Below, one piece after another: positions 11,868 through 29,405 of a stretch of DNA of 64,000 bases. The notes under the pieces were generated by a model that saw only the letters and a program-made list of their open reading frames with translations, did no database searches and was not told the origin of the DNA. Numbering within the stretch: position 1 is the stretch's first letter; every line of letters begins with the position of its first letter. The DNA comes from a virus, in the IMG/VR virus record IMGVR_UViG_3300032323_001868, positions 25,762 through 89,761 of that record, one strand, 5' to 3'. The position numbers and the translations under genes are program-made.

Positions 11868-11903
11868 TAGTAAATAGTGATATAGTTATATTTGGGGGTA
11901 GAT

Positions 11904-12407
11904 ATGTCATATCAGGTATTTGATAACTTTTTGTTACCTAACGAATTTAACCAAGTTAAGAACACTGTATGCGATCCAAGATTTCCTTGGGGATATAGTA
12001 GTTCTATTACGACTGAAGTAAGCACTGGACCATATGACTTTCAGTTTGTTCACATGTTTTATCAAAATCATAGAGTTATGTCAGAACACTTTGAATCTAT
12101 ATACCCTTTAATAAACAAAATAAATCCAGCAGCAATCGCAAGAGTTAAGGCAAATTTAGTTACTAGGAATCCAGTAAGTAACGAGTTTGGATATCACACA
12201 GATTTTGAAGATGCACATTTATTGAAGTCAGCGGTATATTATTTAGATACAACCGATGGCGTTACCAGGTTTAAGGACGGCACAGAGGTAGAATGCATAG
12301 AGAATAGACTATTAGTATTTAACAATAATATGCCACATACTTCTACTAGTTGTACGGATCAAAAGGTTAGAAGAGTCATAAATCTCAACTATTATGAACT
12401 AATTTAA
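11904..12407 (+). CDS. 2OG-Fe(II) oxygenase
   Basis: HTD...AVYYL...G.T.F...NRLLVF...HTS...RRVINLNY. Confidence 0.85.
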   Translation: MSYQVFDNFLLPNEFNQVKNTVCDPRFPWGYSSSITTEVSTGPYDFQFVHMFYQNHRVMSEHFESIYPLINKINPAAIARVKANLVTRNPVSNEFGYHTDFEDAHLLKSAVYYLDTTDGVTRFKDGTEVECIENRLLVFNNNMPHTSTSCTDQKVRRVINLNYYELI

Positions 12408-13418: not shown

Positions 13419-14147
13419 ATGGCTATATCAAAGAGCATGGACTCTCCAGTTAGAAAATCTAATTATGCAGAGCAGGTTGCTCAGTCACAAGGACAAGATC
13501 CTACTTTATCTTTCCTACCAGTTCCTGGACCACAAGGACCTGCAGGCCCACAAGGTGAAAAAGGTCAACAAGGACCTCAAGGGCCTATTGGTGAAAAAGG
13601 TGAAAAGGGTGATCCAGGAAAAGATGGTAAAAATGGAAAAGATGGCAAGGACGGAAAAAGCGTTTTATCACCTTCTGAGCAACAAATAGGTTGGGCATAT
13701 TATGAAAATACATCCAAGTCTCAAAAACGGGTAGGAATAGATCAAGGTGATGATGGCTGGGTTAGGCTTTTAATTGATAGGGTAGGATATAAAAAAAATG
13801 AGCAGTACCTGCCAAATGGAGGTGTTTCTCTTTGGAATTCAACCACAGGCAAGATTAATTTTAAAACCTTAAATATTGGTTCAATCATAACAATACGTTA
13901 TAATATTTTATTGACTACCTACTCAAACAATACAGAGGTGTGGTTTAGAACATATGTTGAAGACTCTGATCAAATACCAACCACATATGTAGGCAATCTA
14001 AAATACCAGTATGATTATGAATTTACTGTTTCTCAGAATATATTTTTAAATGACTTTGCCATTCAAAATTTTGGTGGTATACCACAGATAAGAACTGATA
14101 ATGCTGGGGAAGCCCTGCTAAAATCTATATATATATCTGTATCGTAA
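13419..14147 (+). CDS. collagen-like virion protein
   Basis: About 15 G-X-Y triplets (GPQGPAGPQGEK...) followed by a beta-rich C-domain. Confidence 0.85.
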   Translation: MAISKSMDSPVRKSNYAEQVAQSQGQDPTLSFLPVPGPQGPAGPQGEKGQQGPQGPIGEKGEKGDPGKDGKNGKDGKDGKSVLSPSEQQIGWAYYENTSKSQKRVGIDQGDDGWVRLLIDRVGYKKNEQYLPNGGVSLWNSTTGKINFKTLNIGSIITIRYNILLTTYSNNTEVWFRTYVEDSDQIPTTYVGNLKYQYDYEFTVSQNIFLNDFAIQNFGGIPQIRTDNAGEALLKSIYISVS

Positions 14148-14185
14148 AATAGATAAACTTTAAATAAGTATGCTATAATTCAATT

Positions 14186-14695
14186 ATGCAAAATATCGGT
14201 ATAACAGACTCCCAGGATGGCCGTAAGCCAGACGCCCCAATCATCGGTACAGCAACAGGTGGAAATGCACAAGCATCAGTTGCTTTTACTGCCCCATCAA
14301 CAACAGGTAAAGGTACTGGAAGTCTTACATATACCGCAACATCTAATCCAGGATCTATAACAGGCACAGCATCTTCGTCACCAATTACAGTAACTGGTTT
14401 GGCAAATGGAACAGCATATACTTTTACAGTTACACTAAGTAACGGAACACTTACATCAGATCCATCTTCTGCTTCTAACTCTGTTACTCCAGTTGCTCCA
14501 CCATTCTTCCCACCATTCTTCCCAGGATTTGGTCCATTCTTCCCACCGTTCTTCCCACCATTCTTCCCGTTCTTCCCACCGTTCTTCCCATACTTCCCAC
14601 CGTTCTTCCCGTTCTTCCCGTTCTTCCCACCGTTCTTCCCGTTCTTCCCACCATCATTTGGACCATGGTTCCCATTCAACGCAACTAGACGATAA
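14186..14695 (+). CDS. FN3-domain protein with a C-terminal Pro/Phe (PPFF/PFF) repeat tail
   Basis: PDAP..GTAT.GN..ASV.F.AP...YT.TS.PG...TVTGL.NGT.YTFTV...S..SNSVTP, then about 60 aa almost only P and F; own TGCTATAAT promoter. Confidence 0.85.
   Translation: MQNIGITDSQDGRKPDAPIIGTATGGNAQASVAFTAPSTTGKGTGSLTYTATSNPGSITGTASSSPITVTGLANGTAYTFTVTLSNGTLTSDPSSASNSVTPVAPPFFPPFFPGFGPFFPPFFPPFFPFFPPFFPYFPPFFPFFPFFPPFFPFFPPSFGPWFPFNATRR
14498..14677 (+). repeat. in-frame tandem repeat of 12-bp (CCACCRTTCTTC-like) and 9-bp (CCRTTCTTC) units
   Basis: Read directly from the sequence; encodes PPFF/PFF. Confidence 0.95.
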
Positions 14696-14719
14696 TAGTT
14701 TAAATGTAGGGGGTTTGTA

Positions 14720-15292
14720 TTGAATCATATCAATGTGGTTAAAAACTTTATTGAGCCTGAGCATATAAATAAGTTAACATCTTTTATAGACAACAATATA
14801 GAAAAATTTGTGGTATATCAAGATAATAAAAGATATGTATGGAGATTTGGTCATGATAATTTTTGGGAAGACTGCAAAAAAGACTTAACACCACTTTCTG
14901 AAATTATAGAAATACTTGAAACTAAAATTTTTAACAATATGTTAAAAAAAATAAAAGAGTTCTATAATGAAGATCTAGTTATTTCTAGTTTTTGGATATC
15001 AAAGCATGAGCCAGGATCCAGAGTCGCTATGCATGAAGATACAGATGAGGGTGAAAATACTCATTTTTCTCATAGTGCCGTTCTATACTTAACATCCCTT
15101 CAAGATGACGGAGTTATAGAATTTCCTTTTGTTAATTTTACTTATACCCCAGTTGCTGGTGAGTTATTGCTTTTCCCATCAAAAGCCATAGACTTTGATT
15201 ATCAATTTATGCATGAGGTAAAAGAAATAAATAGCCCAAGGTACAGTATTGCTCTTTGGGCAGCACCAAAAGAATATTCTTTATATGAGTGA
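14720..15292 (+). CDS. prolyl-4-hydroxylase-like 2OG-Fe(II) oxygenase 1
   Basis: HED...SAVLYL...G.IEFP...P.AG.LL.FPS...HEV...RYS. Confidence 0.9.
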   Translation: MNHINVVKNFIEPEHINKLTSFIDNNIEKFVVYQDNKRYVWRFGHDNFWEDCKKDLTPLSEIIEILETKIFNNMLKKIKEFYNEDLVISSFWISKHEPGSRVAMHEDTDEGENTHFSHSAVLYLTSLQDDGVIEFPFVNFTYTPVAGELLLFPSKAIDFDYQFMHEVKEINSPRYSIALWAAPKEYSLYE

Positions 15293-15336
15293 TAAAGATT
15301 TAATGTGCTGTGATATAATTAAAAAAGGGGTGTTTT

Positions 15337-15906
15337 TTGAAACATATTAATGTAATTGAAAACTTTATTGATGATGATACCAATAAACTAATGGTTGACT
15401 TCATTAATAATAATCAAGAACTATTTTCGTCAGATCAAGAGGACAGAAGATTTGCCTTAAGGTTTGGCAAAGATTTTTATTGGCAAGACTCAAATGAAGA
15501 TATGTCATTGTTAAAGGATTTGTCTAATATCTTTAAAGACAAGATTTTTCCTAAAGTTAATAATGTAATCTTTGAACTATACAATGAAAAAAATCTAAAA
15601 GTATCTAACGTGTGGCTTTCTAAGCATCTTCCTGGTTCAATAGTGCCAATGCACCTAGACCATGATGGATGGAGAAATTCACAGTTTAGATATAGTGCAA
15701 TACTTTATTTAAGCACATTAGACAATGATGGAATATTGCAGTTTCCATTTTTAGAGCATAGTTACACACCAGTATCTAATAGTTTAATTATTTTTCCTTC
15801 ACACGGAATTGATTTTGATGATCAGTTTGCACATCGTGTAGATAGCATTAATTCTGTAAGATATAGCGTTCCTATGTGGATTTCCGACATAGAATATAGT
15901 TTATGA
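15337..15906 (+). CDS. prolyl-4-hydroxylase-like 2OG-Fe(II) oxygenase 2 (tandem paralogue of 1)
   Basis: HLD...SAILYL...HRV...RYS; N-terminus and FPS..IDFD.QF.H segment closely match gene 1. Confidence 0.9.
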   Translation: MKHINVIENFIDDDTNKLMVDFINNNQELFSSDQEDRRFALRFGKDFYWQDSNEDMSLLKDLSNIFKDKIFPKVNNVIFELYNEKNLKVSNVWLSKHLPGSIVPMHLDHDGWRNSQFRYSAILYLSTLDNDGILQFPFLEHSYTPVSNSLIIFPSHGIDFDDQFAHRVDSINSVRYSVPMWISDIEYSL

Positions 15907-15929
15907 TATAATTTAAGAAAGGGGTAATT

Positions 15930-16613
15930 ATGAATACGTTAGAGCACAAAGGTATAACAGTAAAAGATCTTGGGAGTGGCATTCTTGTTTATAGTAATGT
16001 TTTGCCAAGAGATTTAAACATTCCAGAAAGACTAGAAAATGTCCTGGGTGGAAATGAAAATATTGTTGACGGCAATCCAGTCAGATATGCCTGGCAACCA
16101 GCATATGTAGGGTACCAAGAGTTGATGCCAGACTACAGAGATTGCGTAGATTTTAAGTATAAGAAGAGTGATCTTTATGATGATGGAACAGAAGAGTATA
16201 AGCAACTTGCCAATATCTGGGATGATTGCTATACAACGCAAAAAGAAGTAGTAGATCATTATTGTGCTAAATTTAATATTCACAACCTAAGATATTGGGA
16301 AGCATTTAATTTTATTAAATATGAAAAGGGAGATCACTTCCAATACCATCACGACCATGGGTTTTCATATAACTGTACAGTTTCTTTAGTTGCATACCTT
16401 AATGACAACTATGAGGGTGGAGGTCTTCACTTCCAGCATCAAGATATTTTGTATAGACCAGTTGCTGGAGATGTTGTAATCTTTCCTTCAACATATATGT
16501 ATTCACATAGAGCAATGCCAGTTGAAAATGGAACAAAGTATTCTTTGGTTACTATGCTTGATTATAGTGATAAATATCATAAGCCAGAATTTTATCAAGA
16601 AACTGGATCATGA
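15930..16613 (+). CDS. prolyl-4-hydroxylase-like 2OG-Fe(II) oxygenase 3
   Basis: HHD...YLNDNYEGGGL.F...FPS..YSH..PV..GTKYS. Confidence 0.9.
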   Translation: MNTLEHKGITVKDLGSGILVYSNVLPRDLNIPERLENVLGGNENIVDGNPVRYAWQPAYVGYQELMPDYRDCVDFKYKKSDLYDDGTEEYKQLANIWDDCYTTQKEVVDHYCAKFNIHNLRYWEAFNFIKYEKGDHFQYHHDHGFSYNCTVSLVAYLNDNYEGGGLHFQHQDILYRPVAGDVVIFPSTYMYSHRAMPVENGTKYSLVTMLDYSDKYHKPEFYQETGS

Positions 16614-17341
16614 GCAACACAATAACCTTTACATCAAACAAACCTTGGATAACTTTAGACGATTCGTCTTTGCCAACTCCAATTATAAAAACTATTCCAG
16701 ATTGGTATAGAAAGGCAGACAGATTTGCTAAAAAGCAAGATGGAGAATATTGGGAAGATCCAAATGTTGGTGGCAAAATCCCAACATGGAAAGCATGTCC
16801 TGCAATATTTGATGTTATGGGTACAGGGTACACTCTTAGAACTCCTTGCGACATAGAGTTTGTTCAAAGAAGCCCTAACACTATGTCAGTTACAATTGCT
16901 GATGCTAAATATAAAGATTTTTGTGTTCCAAGACCAAAAATGCCACAGTTTGAACATCCAAGAGGATATTATGAAAATCATTTTGCTTGGTTTTCAGAGT
17001 GGGAAATAAAAACACCTACAGGATACAGCATACTGTACTCACAACCATTTAATAGGTATGAGTTACCATTTTTAACTACATCTGGAATTATTGATAACGA
17101 TAAGGTTCACTTGCCTGGATCAATGCCTTTCTTTTTAGCAAAAGGGTTTGAAGGTATTATTCCCGAAGGCACACCTTATGCACAATTAATACCATTTAAA
17201 AGAGAAGACTGGAAGTCAGAAGTTAATCTAGAAGATCCTTCCAAAATTTCTGAAAAAAATTATAAAAATTCTGCCAAGTACAGAGTTCCAGATGGCGGTA
17301 TATATAAGAATAAAGTGTGGGAACCAAGGAGATACGAATAA
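16610..17341 (+). CDS. DUF6065-related / dUTPase-fold-like hypothetical protein
   Basis: IPDWY, K.CP...D....GY, W.IKTP.GYS, P.N, SGIID.D, IPEGTPYAQLIPFKR; no HxD triad. Confidence 0.6.
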   Translation: MSNTITFTSNKPWITLDDSSLPTPIIKTIPDWYRKADRFAKKQDGEYWEDPNVGGKIPTWKACPAIFDVMGTGYTLRTPCDIEFVQRSPNTMSVTIADAKYKDFCVPRPKMPQFEHPRGYYENHFAWFSEWEIKTPTGYSILYSQPFNRYELPFLTTSGIIDNDKVHLPGSMPFFLAKGFEGIIPEGTPYAQLIPFKREDWKSEVNLEDPSKISEKNYKNSAKYRVPDGGIYKNKVWEPRRYE

Positions 17342-18057
17342 TGAATACCTATGATGAAAATAATAATGTTTGGTTTACAAAAGATAGATCAGAGACAGTA
17401 TCTAACAGAGTTGTTAGGTCACTTAATGGTGCTATTAATGTTGAAAATCCAGGTATAGGTTTAAATATATACACAAATGCTTTTTCTAAAGAAGATGCTG
17501 ATAGATATATTAATATTCTTGAGTCTAATCTAGGTCAAAATAAAAAATACAAGTGGTCAGATGCTACAGTCACAAACTCTCCTAATCCAATTAAAAGGGC
17601 AAGAGATTGCGTAGACTTTAAGTATAAGCAAGAAAATTTAGGGCCAAGAGACAACACAAACGCAGAACTAATAGATTTGCATCAAGAGATATATGAAAAA
17701 CTAAAGTTGTGTATAGATGACTATGCCAGATACTGGGGTATAGAGGTTGTTTATTATGAAGCCTTTAACTTTGTAAAATATGAAGGAGAGGGTACACACT
17801 TCAATATCCATGCAGATCATGGTCCAGCATACAACTGCACAGTATCTGCAGTTATCTATATTAATGATGACTATGAGGGAGGGGAACTAAAGTTTCCAAG
17901 ATTAGACAACTATGTTCATAAGCCAAGAGTTGGAGATATAGCAGTTTTCCCTTCAAACTATATTTATGAGCATGCATCTCTTCCTATGAAGTCTGGAACT
18001 AAATACTGTGTAGTGATTATGACTGATATAAACAAGTTAGGACATAAAGATTTCTAA
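17341..18057 (+). CDS. prolyl-4-hydroxylase-like 2OG-Fe(II) oxygenase 4 (paralogue of 3)
   Basis: Shares RDCVDFKYK and EAFNF.KYE with gene 3; HAD...YINDDYEGGEL.F...YEH...GTKY. Confidence 0.9.
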   Translation: MNTYDENNNVWFTKDRSETVSNRVVRSLNGAINVENPGIGLNIYTNAFSKEDADRYINILESNLGQNKKYKWSDATVTNSPNPIKRARDCVDFKYKQENLGPRDNTNAELIDLHQEIYEKLKLCIDDYARYWGIEVVYYEAFNFVKYEGEGTHFNIHADHGPAYNCTVSAVIYINDDYEGGELKFPRLDNYVHKPRVGDIAVFPSNYIYEHASLPMKSGTKYCVVIMTDINKLGHKDF

Positions 18058-18800
18058 TGATTAACTTATCCGCTGAAAAAATGATAGGATGTCCGCTAGT
18101 AGTTTCTCCCATGTCTATTAAAAGAGATTGGATGGATGAAACTCCACAGGGACATGCGTATAGGTGTTTTCCAGTCGGACAGGCCAACATGGTTGGTTGG
18201 AGCCTTTCTTGTGTAGACGACATTACCTTTGTTTGGAACGGTATAACAGATACTACTTCAGATACAGTGTCTATAGTAGATCAAAAGCCATATCTTTATA
18301 CTGGTCGTGGTCAATCAACATTAAGTTTTAATACAGGGTTAGTTTTTAAATCTGACGAAAATATTAGTTTATTAACAATCAACCCAGTAAATTCTTTTAG
18401 TTTGGATTTTGAAACTATGTCTTCTTTGATAAGTACATCATTTTATGACAACCCGCTACCATTAGCCATTAAAGCCAGGGCTGCTAACAAAGAGGTAACA
18501 ATAAAAGCAGGAACACCTATAGCAACAATAATTCCTATATCATTAACAATGATAAATAACACTACAATCAATATTGTTGATTATTTAGATATAGATAATA
18601 AGAGAGCCTTATCAAATCAAGCATACGGTGAGGCAGCACAAGTTATCAACCAGTCAGGAAAGTGGACAGACTGGTATAGAGATGCTGTTAATGAAAAGGG
18701 TGAGTCAGTCGGACACCATGAGGCAAAAACAATAAAACTGTCTGTGGTCGATAATACAACTAGTAAAACCAATAATCCTCTAGAGAAAAAAGAGATATAA
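18057..18800 (+). CDS. DUF6065-family protein
   Basis: RDWMD.T...HAYRCFP...AN..GW, GTPIA.IIP and C-terminal WY motifs. Confidence 0.75.
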   Translation: MINLSAEKMIGCPLVVSPMSIKRDWMDETPQGHAYRCFPVGQANMVGWSLSCVDDITFVWNGITDTTSDTVSIVDQKPYLYTGRGQSTLSFNTGLVFKSDENISLLTINPVNSFSLDFETMSSLISTSFYDNPLPLAIKARAANKEVTIKAGTPIATIIPISLTMINNTTINIVDYLDIDNKRALSNQAYGEAAQVINQSGKWTDWYRDAVNEKGESVGHHEAKTIKLSVVDNTTSKTNNPLEKKEI

Positions 18801-18807
18801 TGTAATT

Positions 18808-19536
18808 ATGAACACTAACGAAAACATGCAGGTTGTAAAGAGGACTGCTTCCCTTACACCTTCTGGATTTTTTGGCAATGGGCCAGAAATGATAGTTGAG
18901 TTAGAAAACTTTATGACTCAAGAAGAGATGGATTTTTTAGAAAAGGCTGCAAAGTCTATAACTATTTGGGATGTTACCCAGAGCCATGTAAATGAGAATG
19001 GAACCGTAATATATGATTCAGATTATTGGAAAGATAGGGTTGCAACTAGCCCAACATTAGATAAAAATGATCCAGCAATTGCTCCAATTATTGCAGGGCT
19101 ATTTCAAAGACTAAAGCCAATCGTAGAAGAGTTTTATAAGGTAAAGGTTAACCCAACAGGAACAACCATTGTTAGATGGTTACCTGGACAGTTTCAAAAA
19201 CCACATGCAGACAAAGAACTACACGAAGGTGTAGACGCTGGACTTCCAAACGATTTTCCATACTACGATCTGTCAAGTTTGTTTTATTTAAATGAAGACT
19301 ATGAGGGGGGAGAGTTATACTTTCCGCTACAAGGGGTTCAGTTTAAACCAAAAAGAGGCGCTGCATATTTTTTCCCAGGGGATATGAACTATATTCATGG
19401 CGTTACTGAAATAAAAAGTGGAATAAGATATACCTGTCCATTTTTTTGGGAAATTCTAGAACATACTGGAGACAAGCAGCCAGACCCAAATGCTAAGTAT
19501 CATAGAACACTAATAGATGGAGACATAGAAAAATGA
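18808..19536 (+). CDS. prolyl-4-hydroxylase-like 2OG-Fe(II) oxygenase 5
   Basis: HAD...YLNEDYEGGELYFP...HGV...G.RY. Confidence 0.9.
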   Translation: MNTNENMQVVKRTASLTPSGFFGNGPEMIVELENFMTQEEMDFLEKAAKSITIWDVTQSHVNENGTVIYDSDYWKDRVATSPTLDKNDPAIAPIIAGLFQRLKPIVEEFYKVKVNPTGTTIVRWLPGQFQKPHADKELHEGVDAGLPNDFPYYDLSSLFYLNEDYEGGELYFPLQGVQFKPKRGAAYFFPGDMNYIHGVTEIKSGIRYTCPFFWEILEHTGDKQPDPNAKYHRTLIDGDIEK

Positions 19537-20285
19537 ACTTAAATAATAAAATTAGATTAACAGAAGATATTCTTTTGTTTGAAAACTTTTTAACAGAAGA
19601 TGAATCTAAAAAGGCAATTGAGGTTTTAGACCTACAGGCTACAAACAACACCCTAACCTGGATGCCAATCTCTTTTTATGAGTCATACTCTTCTGTTATC
19701 CCGCAAGACAATGATCCCGAATTAGCAGAAATTGGCTTGCCATTTGACTTTTTTTCAAATGTAAAAAAGGGCATTATCAAAGCAGTTTCATATGTCCATG
19801 ATATTGATGAGTCTAAACTGGTACAAATCGGATATCATACTCAAAAGTGGGAGCCAGGAGCATATGCAACACTACACTCAGACAACACAGACACAGAGGG
19901 AAATTCTGGACCATTTGCAAGAAGCAAGTATGCTGCCTTCTTATACTTAAATGATGATATTGAGGGTGGAGTTTTACAGTTTCCAAGTCACAACATAGTT
20001 ATTCCACCAAAAACAGGTTTGTTGGCAGCGTTTGCAGGTGGATTTGATAATATGCATGAAGTAACAATGATAACTAAGGGTGTTAGATATACACTAGGCT
20101 CATTTTGGGATGACAAGCAAGAAGAAGAGTACCCAGAAGAAGTAAGAGCGCAGTGGAAAGAAGAAATGCAAAAGATTAGAGATGCCCAAAAAATAGAAAA
20201 AGAAGAGTGGCAAAAGATACTACAAGATGGGTATAAGATAGATCAAAATGGAAATAAATATCCTGTCAAGGATTTAGAAAAATGA
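19533..20285 (+). CDS. prolyl-4-hydroxylase-like 2OG-Fe(II) oxygenase 6
   Basis: HSD...YLNDDIEGG.L.FP...HEV...G.RY. Confidence 0.9.
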   Translation: MNLNNKIRLTEDILLFENFLTEDESKKAIEVLDLQATNNTLTWMPISFYESYSSVIPQDNDPELAEIGLPFDFFSNVKKGIIKAVSYVHDIDESKLVQIGYHTQKWEPGAYATLHSDNTDTEGNSGPFARSKYAAFLYLNDDIEGGVLQFPSHNIVIPPKTGLLAAFAGGFDNMHEVTMITKGVRYTLGSFWDDKQEEEYPEEVRAQWKEEMQKIRDAQKIEKEEWQKILQDGYKIDQNGNKYPVKDLEK

Positions 20286-20941
20286 TTCAATCTTTAAAAC
20301 AAAAAATACAGGATGATGGTTTTGTTGTTAAAGAACCAATCAGCGATGTGTTGGTTGTAGAAGATTTTCTTTCTATAGATGAATTGCAACAGTTTAAAAA
20401 TATTATTAACAATTTAACTGAGGCTGACTGGAACATTGAATATACCAAAAACCTAACAAGATTTTGTTTAGAAAAGTTTGGAAGAGACGATGTTGAAAAT
20501 TTGGTTGCAGAGGGTAAATTTGAAATTACCAGGGGCTGGGAAGATAAAAACTATAGCATTGCAAATGACCCAATTGTAGAAAACGTTATTACTAAACTAA
20601 GTCGTTTAGTTAATTCTGTAGATCCATCGTTAGAGCCTAGCGGATTAAAAACACTGCAAAGAATGCAAGAAGGTGTTGAACTAAAGGCTCATACAGATCA
20701 GCATACAGATCCTTCAATTAGGTATGCTACGATAATTTATTTAAATGACAACTATAATGGTGGGGAGTTGTTTTTTAGTGATAAAGATTTGGAGTTAAAG
20801 CCAAAGCCAGGTTCTTTAGTCGTGTTTCCAGGAACAGACGATTTCAACCATGGTGTAAGGCATGTAGAGGAAGGCCCAATCAGATATGTGCTGGTGGGAT
20901 TTATAAAAGTTAAAGATTTTTATGAAAATAACAAATACTAG
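20282..20941 (+). CDS. prolyl-4-hydroxylase-like 2OG-Fe(II) oxygenase 7
   Basis: HTD...YLNDNYNGGELFF...HGV...RY. Confidence 0.9.
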   Translation: MIQSLKQKIQDDGFVVKEPISDVLVVEDFLSIDELQQFKNIINNLTEADWNIEYTKNLTRFCLEKFGRDDVENLVAEGKFEITRGWEDKNYSIANDPIVENVITKLSRLVNSVDPSLEPSGLKTLQRMQEGVELKAHTDQHTDPSIRYATIIYLNDNYNGGELFFSDKDLELKPKPGSLVVFPGTDDFNHGVRHVEEGPIRYVLVGFIKVKDFYENNKY

Positions 20942-20944
20942 GAA

Positions 20945-21586
20945 ATGGAGATAGAAATGGACAAGCAGATACTAGAAGAAAAGGTTTATTACTATACAAA
21001 AGTAATTGATGATCCAAAAAAACTTGTTGATGCCATTGAGAGTGACAATGCAAGCGAATGGGGAGAGTGGGCTGCTTGCAGCGGACAACACTACGTCTAC
21101 GGTACAGATAAGAGCATTTCTTTGTCTGATGAAAAAGATGAATCAAATAACTATATCTACTCTACATTACAAAAGGCTTTTGACGATGTAGCAAGAGACT
21201 ATGCAAAATCTCAAGGAATTACAGATGAACCAAAACTGTTTCCTATGTATCCGATTAAAAAGTATCAGGCTGGAACCTTTATGGGTGCACATTTTGACCA
21301 ACAAGAGGGAGACGAAAGACTAAAGGTTTCTTTTGTTATGTATCTAAATGATGATTATGAAGGTGGAGAAATTTCATTTACTATTGCCTCACCAGAAGGC
21401 GTACTAAAGACACAGACTCCTCATGCAGATTTTGAAATTGCCAAAGATGAAGGAAATTATACGTTTTATGTGAAGCCAGAAGCAGGAAGCATTATCGTGT
21501 TTCCTCCATCTCCACCATACCACCATACCGCTCATCTGGTAAAAAGTGGATATAAGTACATGGTTCCACAACACTGGATTCATTAA
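20945..21586 (+). CDS. prolyl-4-hydroxylase-like 2OG-Fe(II) oxygenase 8
   Basis: HFD...YLNDDYEGGEI.F...HTAH.V.SG.KY. Confidence 0.9.
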   Translation: MEIEMDKQILEEKVYYYTKVIDDPKKLVDAIESDNASEWGEWAACSGQHYVYGTDKSISLSDEKDESNNYIYSTLQKAFDDVARDYAKSQGITDEPKLFPMYPIKKYQAGTFMGAHFDQQEGDERLKVSFVMYLNDDYEGGEISFTIASPEGVLKTQTPHADFEIAKDEGNYTFYVKPEAGSIIVFPPSPPYHHTAHLVKSGYKYMVPQHWIH

Positions 21587-21588
21587 TT

Positions 21589-22257
21589 TTGAAAACTGCA
21601 ATAGTCACAGGGGCAAGTAAGGGTGTTGGCTATGAAACAGTCAAACTTTTGTCTAAAAATGGATATAAAGTAATTGCTGTTTCAAGAAACCTTTCTAAAG
21701 TTTCTGAGTTAGAGTCTGAAAATGTTGAAACATACAAACTAGATATAACAAATTCGGACGAAATAAAAAATTTTTATGAAAAGTATAAAAATATAACATT
21801 AGACCTTCTAGTAAACAATGCAGGTGGTGGATCTAGCCCAACAGACATTATGCACGAAACAATGGCAAACTTTAGAATCGCCTATGACATAAATGTTTCT
21901 GGCCCTATGTATCTTTCACAACTGTTTGTGCCATGTATGAAAAAGTCAAACTCCCCAACTATTATTTTTGTAACATCAATAGGTGGTAATGTTCCATATC
22001 CTGGGGGTGGTAACTATACAAATGCTAAACGAGGCGAGATAGGTCTTATTGAGACAATGAGGTTAGAGTTTCCATCACACAACATTAAGGTAACAGAGAT
22101 ATGCCCAGGGACTATAGATACTCAACAAGAAAAGAAAGATCAAGCGCTTACTGCTGAAGACCTTGCCGAATCTATTTTGTGGGTTTCTTCATTGCCAAGC
22201 CATTTTAATGTCAATAGTCTGAATATTAGTCATATCAATAATGCAGTTTTTAGATAA
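21589..22257 (+). CDS. short-chain dehydrogenase/reductase
   Basis: TGASKGVG, NNAG, catalytic S...YTNAK, PG.IDT. Confidence 0.92.
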   Translation: MKTAIVTGASKGVGYETVKLLSKNGYKVIAVSRNLSKVSELESENVETYKLDITNSDEIKNFYEKYKNITLDLLVNNAGGGSSPTDIMHETMANFRIAYDINVSGPMYLSQLFVPCMKKSNSPTIIFVTSIGGNVPYPGGGNYTNAKRGEIGLIETMRLEFPSHNIKVTEICPGTIDTQQEKKDQALTAEDLAESILWVSSLPSHFNVNSLNISHINNAVFR

Positions 22258-22302
22258 AAAAATACCCTCCTAGCATTGTGCTAAGAGGGTTATTTTTATT
22301 TT
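22258..22302. terminator. bidirectional intrinsic terminator
   Basis: ACCCTC-CTAGCA/TGCTA-AGAGGGT stem flanked by A and T runs between convergent genes. Confidence 0.8.
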
Positions 22303-25233: not shown

Positions 25234-26289
25234 ATGTTTAGAATGTCTTTATATGCACATCCACATGTAAGAAGATCAGAGTCTTACTTTGGTTATGCAT
25301 ATGCATATAATGAAATTAACAAACACCTAAGAAGATATCAGCATAACGGAGAAACCATTAATGTTGACATTAATTCTCCAAAGTCAAAAACACAATTATA
25401 TTTTGGGTCTCCTGATGGATTTTTTTATGACCACCAATATAAAATACAAATGACTCAATGGGAATCAACACTTGTTCCCCCACATTGGGTTGATCATGCA
25501 AAAAGATATGATGAATGGTGGACGGCCAATCAATTTGGAGCAGATGCTTTTATAAATGCTGGGGCACCTGCAGAAAAAATACATGTATTTGAACATGGAG
25601 TTGATTCATCTATTTGGACTCCAAAAAAACGAGGAACAAAAGATACAATAAGGTTTTTGCACATAGACTCAGGATCTCCAAGAAAGCGTGGAAGTTTGGC
25701 GGTAGAGGCTTTTAAAAAGGCATTTGGAGATAATCCTGATTATGAGATAACTCTTAAGTACAGTCATCATGGCGCTTCAGAACAAGATTGGTTCAACGAA
25801 AAAGTCTTGGCAAATTATGGAGAGTGGCAAGATATAAATGTTCGTCACATTAAAGAAAATTTAACTCTTGAGCATTTGATTAGTTTATTTCATTTTCACG
25901 ATGTATTAATTTATCCATCAGAAGGCGAAGGGTTTGGACTAATTCCACTACAGGCTCTTGCCACTGGAATGCCAGTAATATCAACATCTGATTGGTGCTC
26001 TTATGACAAATATTTTCAGGGGAATATAATTGAGTCCCACAGAGGAATATCAGATGTAGTAGAAACATATACAAGACACGGAGAGGTCATACTTCCACAC
26101 CTAGACTCTATGGTTGACCTAATGAAAAAAGCGGCAGAGAATATTGAAACACAATCAAATTTGTTTTATGGCCAAATATCAGAGGTAGTTAAAGACTATG
26201 ACTGGCAGTATAGAACAAATATGGCTATAGATTCTTTGATTGATAGAATCGGAATAGACATGTTTAAGAATTCTGGGTATTTTCAATGA
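25234..26289 (+). CDS. GT-B (GT4-like) glycosyltransferase
   Basis: HGVD, RK, YPSEGEGFGLIPLQALATGMPVI. Confidence 0.9.
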   Translation: MFRMSLYAHPHVRRSESYFGYAYAYNEINKHLRRYQHNGETINVDINSPKSKTQLYFGSPDGFFYDHQYKIQMTQWESTLVPPHWVDHAKRYDEWWTANQFGADAFINAGAPAEKIHVFEHGVDSSIWTPKKRGTKDTIRFLHIDSGSPRKRGSLAVEAFKKAFGDNPDYEITLKYSHHGASEQDWFNEKVLANYGEWQDINVRHIKENLTLEHLISLFHFHDVLIYPSEGEGFGLIPLQALATGMPVISTSDWCSYDKYFQGNIIESHRGISDVVETYTRHGEVILPHLDSMVDLMKKAAENIETQSNLFYGQISEVVKDYDWQYRTNMAIDSLIDRIGIDMFKNSGYFQ

Positions 26290-26975
26290 AGTACACCATT
26301 ATGAAAGTAAATGATCGTGCTATAGAAAACATAAAGCACAATCACAATGTATTAAAAAGTTTTGATTACATAGATGATATCAACTTTTTTAATGGAAATA
26401 CTGAAAATGGCTTTAATGTGTTAAATAATATGGGTATTAGGCTAGATACATGGCACCCATATGATGGAAGATTAACTGACCCACTTCCAGGAGAATACGG
26501 AGTTTGGGTAAGCACTATTAACTTATGGAAATATATTGTTGATAATAGTATAGAAACTCTATTAGTATTGGAAGACGATATAATTTTGCAAGAAAATTTT
26601 TTAGAAAATTTAAATTTATGCTTAAATGATTTGCCAAAAAACTTTGATTTTTTATCTTTATATTATTTTCAAGGTCAAAACGAAGAATCAGAAATGGTTA
26701 ACATTGGATCTGAGTTTATTCAAAAATCTAATAACCAGTATTCAGCAGCCCAAGCGATGATATATTCTTATGTTGGAGCAAAAAAACTTCTTAAGTTAAT
26801 AAATAGAAAAGGCATGGAGTATACAAATGATTGTTTTATTTATAGACAGTCTTTAGAAGGACTAGTAAATGGGTATTCCATTAAAGGACAAAATGATTTA
26901 TTTTTAACACATTCTCACAAACAAATAGAGTCAATTATAGATCCAACAAACTTTAGAAACACAGAGGATGTCTAA
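26286..26975 (+). CDS. GT25-like glycosyltransferase
   Basis: GEYGVW.S...LW, LVLEDD, AMIYS..GA.KLL...D. Confidence 0.8.
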   Translation: MKYTIMKVNDRAIENIKHNHNVLKSFDYIDDINFFNGNTENGFNVLNNMGIRLDTWHPYDGRLTDPLPGEYGVWVSTINLWKYIVDNSIETLLVLEDDIILQENFLENLNLCLNDLPKNFDFLSLYYFQGQNEESEMVNIGSEFIQKSNNQYSAAQAMIYSYVGAKKLLKLINRKGMEYTNDCFIYRQSLEGLVNGYSIKGQNDLFLTHSHKQIESIIDPTNFRNTEDV

Positions 26976-27808
26976 TGAATATAACTTTTATAAGTTTTGC
27001 AAGCAATTCTTGGAAAAATTCTTTTACCAGAATTAAATCGCAAATAGATGGATTGGAAATTTTTTCAAATATTGTTTTATTTGATGAGCATATGTTAAAA
27101 AATAAAACCAATTTTTATGAAGAAAATAAAACCATATTCAATGTTTTTCCAAAAGCGTATGGTGGCGGAATATGGAAGCCATACATAATAGAAAAGTGTT
27201 TTGAAATTTATCCTGAAACAGATCTATTCTTTTATTCAGATAGTGGAAATGAATTTTTTTTTAATGCAGAAAATAAAAATAGATTTAATCAATACACAGA
27301 AAAAGCAATAAGAGATTCATTTTTAGCATTTCGTGGCCCAGTTTTAGAAAATAAGTACAGCCACTGTTCTGTAATTAATGAAATTTATCCTAATGCAAAA
27401 GACACAAAGCAGTTCAATTCTGGAACATTGTTTATAAAAAACAATAAAGTTGGAAAAAAAATAATTGAAGATTGGAAATATTTTTGTATAAAAGATAACT
27501 ATAGGTTAATTTTGTGTGAAGAAAAATGCTGTGATGATTTTTATACAAACATATATGATCAATCTATTCTTTCTTGTATATTAAAAAAATATAACATAGA
27601 AGGAATTCAAGACGAATGTGATTGGTTTTTAAGTCCCCCAATGTCTAAAGAAAAAAATATAAAAAAAATACAGGGGTATCCAATTTTTAATGCTAGGAAC
27701 CCATACAAATACTCTATAATTGATAAATGTTTAAAATACCACGACGGAGTTAAGTGTGTTCATTTTGACAACGATAAGTATTGCGAAGACACAGTTATTT
27801 TGAGATAA
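26975..27808 (+). CDS. putative GT-A glycosyltransferase
   Basis: G..IWKPYII, YSDSG, W...C and DQSILS motifs. Confidence 0.65.
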   Translation: MNITFISFASNSWKNSFTRIKSQIDGLEIFSNIVLFDEHMLKNKTNFYEENKTIFNVFPKAYGGGIWKPYIIEKCFEIYPETDLFFYSDSGNEFFFNAENKNRFNQYTEKAIRDSFLAFRGPVLENKYSHCSVINEIYPNAKDTKQFNSGTLFIKNNKVGKKIIEDWKYFCIKDNYRLILCEEKCCDDFYTNIYDQSILSCILKKYNIEGIQDECDWFLSPPMSKEKNIKKIQGYPIFNARNPYKYSIIDKCLKYHDGVKCVHFDNDKYCEDTVILR

Positions 27809-27817
27809 GGATAAATA

Positions 27818-28498
27818 GTGATAGAAAAAATTGTTTATGATTTTGGTGCACACAATGGAAGCAATATTCCATACTATCTTGCTATATTTGATAAAGTTAT
27901 TGCAGTAGAGGCAAACCCAACACTATCTAATGAAATTGTTAACAAGTTTAAGAACGAAATAGACAGCAATAGGCTGGTTGTTTTAAACAATGTCATATCA
28001 TTAAAATCAGAAATGGTTGATTTCTATATACATGAGCACAACTCTGTTCTTAGTCAATTTCCAGTTCCAAGTGACATTGAAAATTTTAAAAAAATTTATA
28101 TTGAATCAAAAACCCCATCAGAAATTATAAATACGTATGGTGATCCAGAATATGTTAAAATAGATGTAGAGCATACAGATGCAGAGATTCTTAAAGATTT
28201 ATTTATAAATAAAATATTTCCAAGGTATATTTCTGCAGAAGTTCACGATGTTACTGTTTTTAGCCTACTAACCTCATCTAACGTGTATAACAGTTATAAA
28301 ATTTTAGATGGAAAAAGTATTAGCAGCATTTATGAAAACATAAACATAAATGAAAAAAAATATAGTTTTCCATTTCATTCAGCAGGACCAATGTTTGAAG
28401 ACATAAAGTCTCCAGAACTAAATAAAGAACAATTGTTTTATTTACTTGCAGAAGAAAGGTTGGGGTGGAAAGACATTCATGCCAAGAGGTCATACTAA
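27818..28498 (+). CDS. FkbM-family SAM methyltransferase
   Basis: YDFGAHNG, AVEANP, YVKIDVE. Confidence 0.88.
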   Translation: MIEKIVYDFGAHNGSNIPYYLAIFDKVIAVEANPTLSNEIVNKFKNEIDSNRLVVLNNVISLKSEMVDFYIHEHNSVLSQFPVPSDIENFKKIYIESKTPSEIINTYGDPEYVKIDVEHTDAEILKDLFINKIFPRYISAEVHDVTVFSLLTSSNVYNSYKILDGKSISSIYENININEKKYSFPFHSAGPMFEDIKSPELNKEQLFYLLAEERLGWKDIHAKRSY

Positions 28499-28499
28499 A

Positions 28500-29405
28500 A
28501 TGACACTATCGCTTGTTACTGGTGGTGCAGGGTTTATTGGGTCTAACTTAGTAGATAAGTTGATTGAATTAGGACATAGGGTTATTGCTATAGACAATGA
28601 ATCTTCAGAATGCCATGATCAATTTTATTGGAACGAAAAGGCACAAAATTACAAGTATGATATCTGTGACTACGACTTGATTGCTCCACTATTTGATAAA
28701 GTTGATTATGTTTTTCATCTGGCTTCAGATGCAAGAATTCAGCCAGCAATTGTTAATCCTAAAAAATCTATTGAGTCAAACATTTTAGGTACAACAAATG
28801 TAATAGAACTTTCTAGAAAAAATAACATAAAAAGATTTATTTATTCAAGTACATCTTCAGCATATGGCAAAAATAATACGGTACCAAATGTTGAGGATCA
28901 ACATCCAGATCCTTTGACCCCGTATTCTTCTGCAAAAGTATTTGGAGAACATCTTTGTAAAATATATAGTAGTTTATACAACCTAAACACAATATCCTTA
29001 AGGTATTTTAATGTTTATGGGAATAGACAACCACTTAAAGGCCAATACGCTCCAGTTGTTGGATTATTTTTAAGGCAAAGAATAGAGGGGGTTCCACTAA
29101 CAATTGTTGGGGATGGAGAGCAAAAAAGAGATTTTACTCATATATCAGATGTTGTAAATGCAAACATTATTGCAGCAATACAGTACTTGCCCGATTCTTG
29201 CTACGGTCAAGTTTACAACATAGGAACTGGCAAAAACTATTCAATTAATCAGATTGCTGGTTCTATCTCTAGCCTAGTAAAGTTTGTGCCAGAAAGGCCA
29301 GGAGAATCCCGTATTACTCTTGCAAATAATGATAAGGCAAAGGAAATTTTTGGGTGGTACCCAACAGTAGACCTGTTAGACTGGATATACAAACAAAATC
29401 ATTAA
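28500..29405 (+). CDS. NAD-dependent nucleotide-sugar epimerase/dehydratase
   Basis: VTGGAGFIGS, STSSAYG, PYSSAK, LRYFNVYG, RDFTHI.D. Confidence 0.93.
   Translation: MTLSLVTGGAGFIGSNLVDKLIELGHRVIAIDNESSECHDQFYWNEKAQNYKYDICDYDLIAPLFDKVDYVFHLASDARIQPAIVNPKKSIESNILGTTNVIELSRKNNIKRFIYSSTSSAYGKNNTVPNVEDQHPDPLTPYSSAKVFGEHLCKIYSSLYNLNTISLRYFNVYGNRQPLKGQYAPVVGLFLRQRIEGVPLTIVGDGEQKRDFTHISDVVNANIIAAIQYLPDSCYGQVYNIGTGKNYSINQIAGSISSLVKFVPERPGESRITLANNDKAKEIFGWYPTVDLLDWIYKQNH

Follow-up and report, generated by a model that had tools for sequence, protein, structure and literature searches.

In the window, as the whole 64,000-nucleotide stretch of DNA analysed here is called, a gene for a fibre-region protein with a proline/phenylalanine (Pro/Phe) tract heads a module of eight diverged P4H-type 2OG-Fe(II) oxygenases, two DUF6065 proteins of predicted dUTPase fold and an SDR, and tract and enzymes are kept together in more than 100 related phage fragments. 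The most likely role of this module would be post-translational hydroxylation of Pro, possibly also of Phe, within Pro/Phe tracts, and it would target the head protein as well as Pro/Phe linkers of tail-fibre-position proteins in related complete genomes. Once hydroxylated, a segment that is polyproline-like and very hydrophobic could become a stiff, soluble spacer on the virion, to which the SDR and nearby glycosyltransferases could contribute oxidation and sugars. We infer this role, including the residues modified and all later steps, from the genes and their catalytic residues, from a P4H-like fold in one enzyme, and from how the tract is built and linked to the array; we put the chance that the tract is the substrate of the array oxygenases at a little under even. 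Phage oxygenase arrays have been known since 2010, and the tract offers them a candidate substrate that can be tested.

The Pro/Phe gene and the enzymes behind it

The source of the window is an uncultured phage from a lake. The head ORF (14186-14695, plus strand) was found where the sequence-only reading had placed it and encodes 169 amino acids, namely an FN3-like domain and then a tract of about 62 residues of the form (P1-2 F F)n, VAPPFFPPFFPGFGPFF...PWFPF. The Pfam fn3 match (E 2.7e-4, 21.5 bits) is under the 25-bit cut-off in the window's copy, and the cut-off is reached by relatives. At the DNA level the tract repeats in tandem, with 12-, 21- and 33-nt periods. The tract is not a product of chance, since one grammar is common to 134 distinct tract-bearing proteins of relatives, in which Phe makes up 50.5% and Pro 42.3% of the tract, Phe/Tyr runs are doublets in 2595 of 2863 cases, and Pro is single or double and encoded by CCA (0.62), CCG (0.26) and CCT (0.11). 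Strict FF doublets, varied Pro codons and folded domains that flank the tract on both sides in an unchanged frame in relatives together point to constraint at the protein level. In related complete genomes, proteins at the tail-fibre position also contain Pro/Phe tracts as linkers. The carriers of tracts are virion-type proteins, one of them a 1561-aa FN3-rich protein directly following the tape-measure and minor-tail genes; (PT)n linkers alternate with the tracts, some of which stand before a split Peptidase_S74 chaperone, Hint-like domains or Cys-rich ends. The window's contig stops short of the tail-fibre-position gene.

The head gene is followed by 11 genes, all on the plus strand and overlapping or spaced by at most 44 nt, which comprise eight PF13640 oxygenases, one clear DUF6065 protein (dufB), one remote DUF6065 relative (dufA) and one SDR (Table 1). 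All eight oxygenases score above the PF13640 cut-off with HxD...H intact, and the 2OG position is Arg in five (genes at 14720, 15337, 18808, 19533 and 20282) and Lys in three (15930, 17317 and 20945), exactly as had been read from the letters. The paralogues are mutually about 20-27% identical, and their own orthologues across the group have median identities of roughly 55-85%. Oxygenase 1 is restricted to the window's close lineage (8 orthologues seen), oxygenase 4 directly follows the Pro/Phe gene in most relatives, and oxygenase 5 is the most conserved array enzyme (61-88% identity to 45 aligned orthologues). Fold comparison was made for oxygenase 5, one of the eight, and its model matched PBCV-1 vCPH best (E 2.8e-11), followed by B. 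anthracis P4H, PHD2 and CrP4H; identity to solved P4Hs is distant at 15-22%. The proposed P4H-type identity is borne out by Pfam and catalytic residues, and by fold for this one enzyme.

The SDR has generic matches to NCBIfam models, every one under cut-off. The terminator expected at the array end was located as a 12-bp hairpin at 22264-22290, scored on the minus strand, with a stem usable in either direction. Head gene and array are probably co-transcribed, and the TATAAT box before the head gene, from a scan in which the count of promoter-like sites was not above the shuffled expectation, is a lead to a possible leaderless start of the unit.

Table 1. Features of the module and its surroundings (window coordinates)
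Feature	Position	Strand	Evidence and remarks
Ninth P4H-type oxygenase, weaker	11892..12407	+	PF13640 1.1e-4, under cut-off; HxD...H kept; upstream of module
Collagen-repeat fibre protein	13419..14147	+	Pfam Collagen 3.7e-9; tail-fibre PHROGs; directly upstream of head gene
TATAAT box	14174..14179	+	Consensus scan; 6 nt 5' of head-gene ATG
Head gene	14186..14695	+	FN3-like residues ~30-96; (P1-2 F F)n residues ~103-165; C-terminus ...NATRR
2OG-Fe(II) oxygenase 1 (P4H-type, Arg)	14720..15292	+	PF13640 1.1e-8; triad
2OG-Fe(II) oxygenase 2 (Arg)	15337..15906	+	PF13640 4.4e-6; paralogue of oxygenase 1, 46% identity
2OG-Fe(II) oxygenase 3 (Lys)	15930..16613	+	PF13640 8.3e-14; 4-nt overlap of stop with dufA start
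dufA, remote DUF6065 relative with conserved Cys	16610..17341	+	phrog_7084 2.7e-34
2OG-Fe(II) oxygenase 4 (Lys)	17317..18057	+	PF13640 3.4e-11
dufB, DUF6065 protein	18057..18800	+	PF19541 3.5e-26
2OG-Fe(II) oxygenase 5 (Arg)	18808..19536	+	PF13640; model pLDDT 84
2OG-Fe(II) oxygenase 6 (Arg)	19533..20285	+	PF13640 4.3e-7; C-terminal extension, charged
2OG-Fe(II) oxygenase 7 (Arg)	20282..20941	+	PF13640 2.1e-14
2OG-Fe(II) oxygenase 8 (Lys)	20945..21586	+	PF13640 9.4e-11; barrel insert of ~25 residues
Classical SDR (TGxxxGxG, YxxxK)	21589..22257	+	adh_short 6.4e-43
Hairpin, 12-bp stem	22264..22290	.	Between SDR gene and convergent lysozyme-like gene; closes unit
Candidate glycosylation block	25234..29405	+	GT4, GT25, GT34-like, FkbM methyltransferase, NDP-sugar epimerase/dehydratase

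Linkage of tract and array in related phages

A Pro/Phe ORF lies upstream in 57 of the 59 DUF6065-anchored loci that have more than 700 bp of upstream sequence. When loci were collected solely by the tract DNA pattern, the array was downstream in 73 and missing in 7, with 31 too short to tell. All seven tract-bearing records tested at 33-100% completeness contain DUF6065, and the three tract-bearing records without it are all 26-50% fragments. The upstream neighbour of the tract gene varies (a collagen-like gene, an Mtd_N-type fibre gene or other), the array sits after either one in genomes with two Pro/Phe genes, and gene order within the array varies among relatives. The arrangement recurs in G011, a complete but distant phage with a 37% identical capsid, where a six-gene array is immediately preceded by an FN3-(APPxFF)n gene. 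The tract pattern is present in at least 120 viral contigs versus 6 matches in 596 Gb of prokaryote genomes, the genuine ones of which are phage contigs; by these searches, the tract is confined to this phage group.

Shared ancestry and conserved synteny account for part of this co-occurrence, because every linked locus belongs to one broad phage group, and recombination in the repetitive tract DNA alone could keep cassettes beside tracts. The co-occurrence test that the sequence-only reading had proposed came out in its favour: nearly all related loci have the Pro/Phe gene at the head of the array, several different flanks are represented, and a distant lineage shows the pairing with a variant repeat. 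It had named arrays commonly lacking a Pro-rich gene as contrary evidence, and this is partly seen in the wider family, where arrays of this kind occur with no Pro/Phe gene in Syn9 and as extra clusters of related genomes. Two such oxygenase clusters are carried by the distant phage and two by the window's genome, located among early genes and far away from tracts; the latter two hold four more oxygenase ORFs and one DUF6065-like ORF.

Known systems and alternative targets

A virus-encoded P4H-type enzyme paired with virus-encoded Pro-rich repeats is also found in PBCV-1, whose P4H was reportedly shown by Eriksson and colleagues (J Biol Chem, 1999) to be active in vitro, and whose own Pro-rich repeat ORFs are said to be the presumed substrates. 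The best structural match of oxygenase 5, vCPH (PDB 5c5t), comes from this virus. However, PBCV-1 infects eukaryotes and has a single enzyme and repeats that are hydrophilic, such as PAPK, whereas the window belongs to a phage with eight predicted enzymes, a Pro/Phe tract and helper proteins. Collagen modification by C-P4H, lysyl hydroxylase and GT25 galactosyltransferase, with mimivirus L230 as a viral case, follows the same logic of a repeat hydroxylated and then glycosylated; the window has collagen-like genes and a GT25 gene, and both Lys and Arg are found at the 2OG position in the P4H family. In contrast to collagen, no Gly-X-Y period is present in the tract; linkage of collagen genes to the array is inconsistent, and the module's genes encode neither a PDI-type subunit nor a peptide-binding TPR domain. 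In actinobacteriophages, according to what Freeman and colleagues reportedly described in 2023, capsid and tail proteins bear C-terminal extensions that are substrates of phage glycosyltransferases. A phage tailoring enzyme and a C-terminal extension of a structural protein are shared features, but that system consists only of the glycosylation of Ser/Thr-rich tails, with no oxygenases and no Pro/Phe tract; virion glycosylation by phage enzymes in this group is echoed in PMC11256854.

The array type itself is already known from Synechococcus phage Syn9, where gp41-gp54 were described in silico as a tandem dioxygenase array including a dUTPase-fold protein, and metabolite synthesis, not virion modification, was proposed (Iyer, Abhiman, de Souza, Aravind, Nucleic Acids Res 2010, PMC2938197). 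The Syn9 array likewise stands just behind tail-fibre and fibre-assembly genes, its function is also putative, and its gp43 is a homologue of dufA (hhalign 95%, E 2.6e-8). The Syn9 array differs in having a JmjC/MINA member as well as two tryptophan halogenases, neither of which Pfam found in the window, and the window's unit has an SDR in addition; no Pro/Phe or other Pro-rich gene was found at the head of gp41-54. Cyanomyoviruses carry 1-5 oxygenase genes each, for which 2OG modulation or DNA repair was suggested (Sullivan et al., 2010, PMC3037559). These T4-like cyanophage genes are the nearest cultured-phage homologues of the window's oxygenases (24-27% identity) and are also multiple per genome, but they lie dispersed or form smaller groups, with no reported linked repeat protein.

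It is unlikely, though a possibility to be taken seriously, that the oxygenases modify collagen-like or other virion fibre proteins, or host proteins such as EF-Tu and ribosomal proteins, with the Pro/Phe gene adjacent merely since both occupy a variable fibre region. In favour of it, the sequence directly upstream carries collagen-repeat fibre genes (10530-11867 and 13419-14147) with Lys at the Y positions of their repeats, a GT25 gene follows downstream, Syn9 has its array after tail-fibre genes with no such tract, the extra clusters are distant from tracts, and an EF-Tu-modifying bacterial P4H (5v7y) is among the fold matches of oxygenase 5. However, collagen repeats occur in 42 of 220 related loci, against a tract beside the array in most, and the tract gene travels with the array despite flank changes and is kept even in the distant phage. 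Many phages, moreover, have collagen-like fibres but no hydroxylase. The collagen-repeat protein next to the head gene may possibly be a second substrate. Synthesis of a small molecule or processed peptide, either independent of the Pro/Phe protein or with the tract as an excised, RiPP-like precursor, is improbable. It is in line with Iyer et al. (2010), who took tandem arrays of phage dioxygenases accompanied by a dUTPase-fold protein for secondary-metabolite clusters, with a generic SDR as is typical of tailoring pathways, and with the self-cleaving-type modules (Hint-like, Peptidase_S74 start) at the end of relatives' tracts, which could free the tract; but no NRPS, ATP-grasp, halogenase, RiPP recognition element or transporter was found in or beside the array, oxygenase 5 comes closest in fold to protein hydroxylases and not to enzymes of the free-amino-acid or clavaminate type, and linkers inside large multi-domain fibre-type proteins are a misfit for a peptide precursor. 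The RiPP-like layout suggested earlier is weakened further, as neither leader/core organisation nor a dedicated protease was seen, and the likeness of PPFF to antamanide and cyclolinopeptide found no support; what stands of that interpretation is the P4H-type enzymes, the co-occurrence and the nearby glycosyltransferases.

The DUF6065 proteins bear on a third alternative, a nucleotide or DNA cluster in which they would bind or process a nucleotide, the oxygenases would oxidise its base or sugar and downstream transferases would decorate it. The two DUF6065-like proteins noted before proved to be one clear member and one remote relative, dufA, which has no Pfam match but aligns with a dufB-type protein (hhalign 85%, E 6e-6; both in PHROG 7084). 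The model of dufB residues 1-165 (pLDDT 70) is a dUTPase-like beta-barrel (Foldseek E 5e-4; best VIA Z 10.8, the top 23 matches all being dUTPase or dCTP deaminase before a fall to Z 4), and dufA shows by eye GI(I/V)DND, PYAQLIP and R.PDGG, ordered like dUTPase motifs III-V. Homologues of dufA adjoin thymidylate synthase and DNA polymerase in HSTV-2, stand beside thymidylate synthase in haloarchaeal viruses that, like HSTV-2, have no PF13640 gene, and lie downstream of ribonucleotide reductase in cyanophage S-RIM4; a ribonucleotide reductase gene abuts the array in many relatives, and oxygenase 5 has a weak Tet_JBP match (E 0.0012, under cut-off). A sequence link to dUTPases, however, was not found with PF00692 (no match in the genome), in profile searches of PDB sequences (no significant match) or by hhalign against E. 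coli Dut (1.4%), and the acidic motif is missing from dufB. All eight oxygenases belong to PF13640, the modelled one resembles protein hydroxylases and not TET, JBP or AlkB, and eight paralogues are an odd number for base modification. DUF6065 is fused elsewhere to PF13640, JmjC/Cupin_8, TPR and sulfotransferase domains, of which TPR and the JmjC protein-hydroxylase domain also speak against nucleotides, and we consider this alternative very unlikely. Because of these fusions and of the overlap with preceding oxygenase genes, the DUF6065 proteins are probably partners of individual oxygenases; none of the 50,697 GenBank phage records contains the dufB type. There is, finally, very little to be expected of a scheme in which the main effect of the oxygenases is to use up or sense 2-oxoglutarate or oxygen and so to reshape host metabolism, with no dedicated phage substrate, as was proposed for the homologous cyanomyovirus genes (Sullivan et al., 2010). 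The eight paralogues diverged anciently, and since each keeps its own orthologues across the group, distinct specific tasks are indicated and not bulk 2OG turnover; the cyanobacterial NtcA argument is inapplicable to a host that, given the presence of a WhiB gene, is probably an actinobacterium.

Neighbouring genes

The ninth oxygenase (11892-12407), the two distant clusters and the glycosyltransferase block (25234-29405) were absent from the sequence-only reading. In line with the glycosylation step that it suggested, candidate glycosyltransferase genes are present 3 kb downstream, and the block may possibly provide follow-on glycosylation; it is not adjacent to the array in most relatives. 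GC drops to 0.285 at this block.

The Pro/Phe protein and the array that follows it

The window covers the 3'-terminal 64 kb of a phage contig from IMG/VR (89.8 kb, estimated completeness 82%). Its genes include those for a portal, a protease, a major capsid protein, a tape-measure protein of 2532 aa, minor tail proteins and several proteins that resemble fibres. A WhiB gene in another part of the genome suggests that the host is an actinobacterium. The sequence-only reading had described a Pro/Phe protein at the head of eleven enzyme genes, and every part of this arrangement was recovered in place (see the table). The eleven genes lie on one strand, separated by gaps of at most 44 nt or joined by overlapping stop and start codons, and the array ends with a short-chain dehydrogenase/reductase (SDR) gene followed by a hairpin, where a terminator had been described.

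The head protein comprises 169 residues, in which an FN3-like domain is followed by VAPPFFPPFFPGFGPFFPPFF...PWFPFNATRR. It scored 21.5 bits (E 2.7e-4) against PF00041 (fn3), for which the Pfam cut-off is 25; two orthologous head proteins reached 33.1 and 26.8 bits, above the cut-off. The DNA of the tract repeats in tandem, at periods of 12, 21, and 33 nt. Among 134 distinct proteins, tracts are 25-162 residues long (median 72), with Phe making up 50.5% and Pro 42.3% of the residues; Phe or Tyr occurs as doublets in 2595 of the 2863 runs, spaced by one or two Pro, and the Pro codons vary. Folded domains in the same frame flank the tract on both sides. This strict grammar, together with the varied Pro codons and the in-frame flanks, marks the tract as a constrained feature of the protein, not an artefact of the DNA. 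An open reading frame with (GKNG)n repeats on the opposite strand was rejected as a gene, being the mirror image of the tract. A TATAAT box lies so close to the head gene that a leaderless mRNA could result; leaderless mRNAs are common in actinobacteria.

Positions of features in and around the module
Feature	Position	Strand	Remarks
Collagen-repeat fibre-type protein	10530-11867		Gly-X-Y repeats; upstream of head gene
Ninth, weaker oxygenase	11892-12407		Upstream of head gene
Small protein, PHROG 1084	12939-13334		Flanks module; paralogue of 23001-23405
Second collagen-repeat fibre-type protein	13419-14147		Gly-X-Y repeats; upstream of head gene
Rejected ORF	14173-14679	-	168 aa, (GKNG)n
TATAAT box	14174-14186		6 nt 5' of head-gene ATG
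Head gene	14186-14695	+	FN3-like domain and Pro/Phe tract
dufA	16610-17341		Remote DUF6065 relative
dufB	18057-18800		DUF6065
Oxygenase 5	18808-19536		
Classical SDR	21589-22257	+	Last array gene
12-bp hairpin	22264-22290		Between SDR gene and lysozyme-like gene
Lysozyme-like gene			Convergent; downstream of SDR gene
Small protein, PHROG 1084	23001-23405		Flanks module; paralogue of 12939-13334
510-aa protein	23676-25208		About seven S-x-D-G-x-x-W motifs, Asp-box/BNR-like, seen by eye in translation
Low-GC block (down to 0.285)	25234-29405		GT4, GT25, GT34-like, FkbM methyltransferase, NDP-sugar epimerase/dehydratase
Last ORF of window	62598-63998		Cut by contig end

In related viruses, 1-5 FN3 domains precede the tract and the end behind it is variable: it may be the short ...ATRR of the window, a Cys-rich knot (with a 142-aa gene and a DUF6171 gene alongside), a Hint-like domain, or the first strand of a Peptidase_S74 chaperone, the remaining part of which is encoded by a separate ORF. 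Which accessory genes are present goes with the kind of C-terminal end. Where the tract ends in the Cys-rich knot (..YCWQACPSCCGSCGC; loci L016:2409-3792, L048:5930-7765 and ~40 others), a 142-147-aa gene that belongs to no known family invariably stands between it and the array, often joined by an 80-aa DUF6171 gene. At L031:6429-7727, L049:1954-3249, L126 and L130:3566-6481 the tract is capped by a domain of ~165 aa with a Cys at its start and HN(K) at its end; such Hint-like domains gave only sub-threshold Pfam matches (Hint_2, Intein_splicing) and no match in a PDB sequence search, and the cap, if autoprocessing, would leave the tract with a reactive C-terminus. The Pro/Phe proteins of L057:2995-4119, L065, L067 and L075 end in S-S-K-R-F-K-H-S-I, the start of the Peptidase_S74 intramolecular chaperone; this self-cleaving chaperone is split, its remaining part being encoded in the same frame by a separate ORF beyond intervening stop codons. 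S74 chaperones are known in trimeric fibres.

Tracts were also found as linkers inside large proteins (600-1561 aa), once alternating with (PT)n linkers, and in complete genomes the 1561-aa tract protein is encoded right behind the tape-measure and minor-tail genes, which is the position of tail fibres. The most suitable reading of the tract is therefore an extended spacer in the fibre proteins of the virion, a role for which it would be remarkably hydrophobic if left unmodified. The last ORF of the window gave an E value of only 0.066 against the tract-bearing tail-fibre protein, too weak a match to establish it as that protein's counterpart.

Linkage of the tract to the array

Co-occurrence of tract and array, proposed earlier as a check, was examined from both sides and held in each direction. 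The search anchored on dufB yielded 362 viral contigs, of which 80 were examined, and a Pro/Phe ORF was present upstream of the array in 57 of the 59 loci with more than 700 bp of upstream sequence; the other two are uninformative, since their flanks are too small and accessory genes of 0.5-1.7 kb can intervene. The search anchored on the tract, by a degenerate DNA pattern, returned at least 120 viral contigs; among the matches listed, the array follows downstream in 73, 31 are too short and 7 lack the array. Ten tract-bearing records were searched whole, and DUF6065 was found in all seven with a completeness of 33-100%, including three complete ones, together with PF13640 genes where these were tested; the three records lacking DUF6065 are fragments, 26-50% complete. 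GenBank phages (50,697 records, searched by megablast with the region and by tblastn with the head protein and dufB) contained no relatives and gave one weak FN3 match.

In 596 Gb of prokaryote genomes the tract pattern had only six matches. Four of them (L200, L203, L204 and L205) belong to metagenome-bin contigs that carry real Pro/Phe ORFs or share a bin with such contigs, and both of those with flanking sequence, L200 and L204, also carry an array oxygenase; these contigs are therefore read as phage and give no host. The other two were rejected, being random hits to high-GC DNA in other reading frames.

The pairing of tract and array survives changes of context. The upstream neighbour of the pair may be a collagen-like gene, an Mtd_N-type fibre gene or another gene, the array can stand after either gene where a genome has two Pro/Phe genes, and the gene order within the array is variable among relatives. 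Most tellingly, in the complete but distant phage G011, whose capsid protein is 37% identical, an FN3 protein ending in (A-P-P-x-F-F)n directly heads a six-gene array (G011:C1:53200-58500, L238). Part of the linkage reflects shared ancestry. Collagen Gly-X-Y repeats, which adjoin the module in the window, occur in only 42 of 220 related loci and appear to be far less faithful companions of the array than the tract.

Common occurrence of the array without any Pro-rich gene had been named as an argument against the tract as substrate. For the wider family this is in part the case, though not for the main array of this phage group. G011, with about 18 oxygenase-like ORFs in total, contains oxygenase/DUF6065 clusters at two more places (10.5-19.3 kb and 98.6-103.8 kb), with no adjacent tract. 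The genome under study likewise has, outside the window, two small clusters of P4H-type oxygenases (G000:C1:2948-5253 and 17473-18723), one consisting of a dufA-like gene and two oxygenases and the other of two oxygenases alone, neither of which is adjoined by a Pro/Phe gene. The array of Synechococcus phage Syn9 is a further case, as no Pro/Phe tract was found in the genes within and just before it.

Oxygenases, DUF6065 proteins and the Syn9-type array

Eight ORFs of the array matched PF13640 with 28-54.7 bits (Pfam gathering cut-off 27), and the ninth oxygenase, upstream of the head gene, scored 23.5 bits, below the cut-off. The HxD...H triad is invariant in all nine. At the position that binds the C5-carboxylate of 2OG, five of the eight array enzymes have Arg and three have Lys, exactly as the sequence-only reading had it, and H133, D135, H197, and R207 are invariant across 46 orthologues of oxygenase 5. 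Measured against the first oxygenase in the alignment, the array oxygenases share 18-27% identity, with one pair at 46% as the exception, and each paralogue keeps its own orthologues across the relatives (median identities of roughly 55-85%); such old paralogues with separately conserved orthologues argue for distinct tasks. Oxygenase 5, the one of the eight that was modelled (pLDDT 84), had PBCV-1 vCPH as its top fold match (5c5t; E 2.8e-11, TM 0.53/0.70), followed by 5v7y, 3itq, PHD2, and 2jig, which include the P4Hs of B. anthracis and Chlamydomonas. Its predicted double-stranded beta-helix fold is thus nearest to protein prolyl hydroxylases, and sequence matches to the same hydroxylases are weak. 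NCBIfam provided no equivalog for any enzyme; the PiuC-type, YhhC and FlmC models matched far below their cut-offs.

Two DUF6065-like proteins had been proposed. This was confirmed by Pfam for dufB (PF19541: 92.6 bits, cut-off 26.6, E 3.5e-26); dufA had no Pfam match and is a remote DUF6065 relative, recognized by hhalign (85%, E 6e-6) and by the shared PHROG 7084. Cys residues are invariant in both families: C37 in alignment A1, C63 and C80 in alignment A5. In the dufB model (pLDDT 70) the N-terminal part is a beta-barrel of the dUTPase/dCTP-deaminase type (Foldseek E 5e-4; VIA Z 10.8), and the first 23 VIA matches all belong to this superfamily, after which the score drops to Z 4. PF00692 (dUTPase) had no match anywhere in the genome, DUF6065 profile searches of PDB sequences for dUTPase kinship gave nothing significant, and hhalign against E. 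coli Dut gave 1.4%, so that the predicted likeness to dUTPase is at the level of the fold only.

DUF6065 is a family of 2992 clusters at 50% identity, whose members are elsewhere fused to PF13640 in either order, to JmjC/Cupin_8, to TPR repeats or to a sulfotransferase; two fused DUF6065-oxygenase proteins used as queries found no related loci. These fusions, together with the overlapping oxygenase-DUF gene pairs, suggest that DUF6065 proteins are partners of the oxygenases.

A tandem dioxygenase array was described in silico in Syn9, gp41-gp54 (Iyer et al., 2010; PMC2938197), and multiple unexplained oxygenases of cyanomyoviruses were noted by Sullivan et al. (2010; PMC3037559). In the window as in Syn9, a number of divergent 2OG-Fe(II) dioxygenases are encoded one after another (eight in the window), together with a dUTPase-fold protein that has a conserved Cys; in the window this fold is predicted for dufB, and Syn9 gp43 matched the dufA profile with 95% (E 2.6e-8). 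The Syn9 array stands after tail-fibre genes. It contains, however, tryptophan halogenases and a member of the JmjC/MINA clade, whereas no halogenase or Cupin_8/JmjC match was found among the eleven genes of the window and their neighbours, and the window has an SDR in addition. The array of the window is therefore a variant and not the same cluster. Literature searches for the PPFF tract or DUF6065 found nothing relevant, and two papers on freshwater phages make no mention of these genes. Dioxygenase arrays of the Syn9 type and viral P4Hs paired with viral Pro-rich repeats are already known; the new element is a specific and testable candidate substrate.

Possible targets of the array and its genomic setting

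Genes for 2OG-Fe(II) oxygenases are numerous in phage genomes, above all in those of abundant aquatic phages. To our knowledge, their targets have been guessed since 2007-2010 (DNA repair, 2OG sensing, metabolite synthesis) and never found. Based on the enzyme family, the fold and the unusually robust gene linkage, we tentatively favor the reading, to which we give a little less than an even chance, that the array hydroxylates the Pro/Phe tracts of virion fibre proteins. Its action on other protein targets is the strongest of the alternatives and still unlikely: it would agree with the clusters that have no adjacent tract; against it, the collagen repeats beside the module appear to follow the array much less faithfully than the tract does. 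Production of a metabolite or a processed peptide is somewhat less likely again. A layout like that of RiPP clusters had been suggested, with the putative substrate gene ahead of the tailoring genes; the head protein, however, is a folded FN3 protein, tracts also lie within proteins of 600-1561 aa, and no RiPP-type protease, recognition-element or transporter families were found among the neighbours of the array.

Nucleotide or DNA chemistry is kept alive by the relatives of dufA. Its homologues (24-32% identical) were found in 49 records of haloarchaeal tailed viruses and in one cyanophage; that of HSTV-2 (gene 40, L227) adjoins thymidylate synthase and DNA polymerase genes in a halovirus genome, the one examined, which has no PF13640 gene, and that of cyanophage S-RIM4 (L228) stands just after ribonucleotide reductase. 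With the likeness of DUF6065 to dUTPase limited to the predicted fold, we regard this chemistry as improbable. Housekeeping of 2OG is the least credible explanation for an array of paralogues that appear to have distinct tasks. Were hydroxylation of the tract, the reading favored here, to be true, bacteriophages would be seen to hydroxylate virion proteins at several sites, the Pro/Phe tracts would represent a new fibre material and DUF6065 would have a role; were it false, the low-complexity tract of these tail-fibre proteins would still be strongly constrained, for reasons as yet unexplained. In more than 100 related phage fragments and one distant lineage, gene order links an unusually large array to one peculiar and easily synthesized sequence, (PPFF)n, which turns the open question of oxygenase targets into a simple experiment.

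A more far-reaching and doubtful proposal is that the tracts are a new structural biopolymer segment. The tract would form a polyproline-like rod with paired aromatic side chains, hydroxylated at distinct positions (C3/C4 of Pro and C-beta of Phe) by a battery of site-specific enzymes, each aided by a dUTPase-fold partner, and subsequently oxidised or glycosylated. Such a rod would be a phage counterpart of the hydroxyproline-rich glycoproteins of plants, in the tail fibres of abundant freshwater actinobacterial phages, and would provide the tandem dioxygenase arrays of phages, so far orphans, with a first substrate.

The genes flanking the module on both sides place it within a variable fibre region. 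Several Y positions of the second collagen-repeat protein upstream are Lys, and Lys in the Y position of collagen is the context used by lysyl hydroxylases. In relatives, the Pro/Phe gene has alternative upstream contexts, marked by one or other of the PHROG 1084 paralogues. The 510-aa protein downstream had no significant family match and is probably a beta-propeller. Beyond the glycosyltransferase block lie Mtd_N-type fibre genes, ribonucleotide reductase and then the phage-head genes. The block itself is a candidate virion-glycan pathway, and GT25 is the family that contains the collagen galactosyltransferases.
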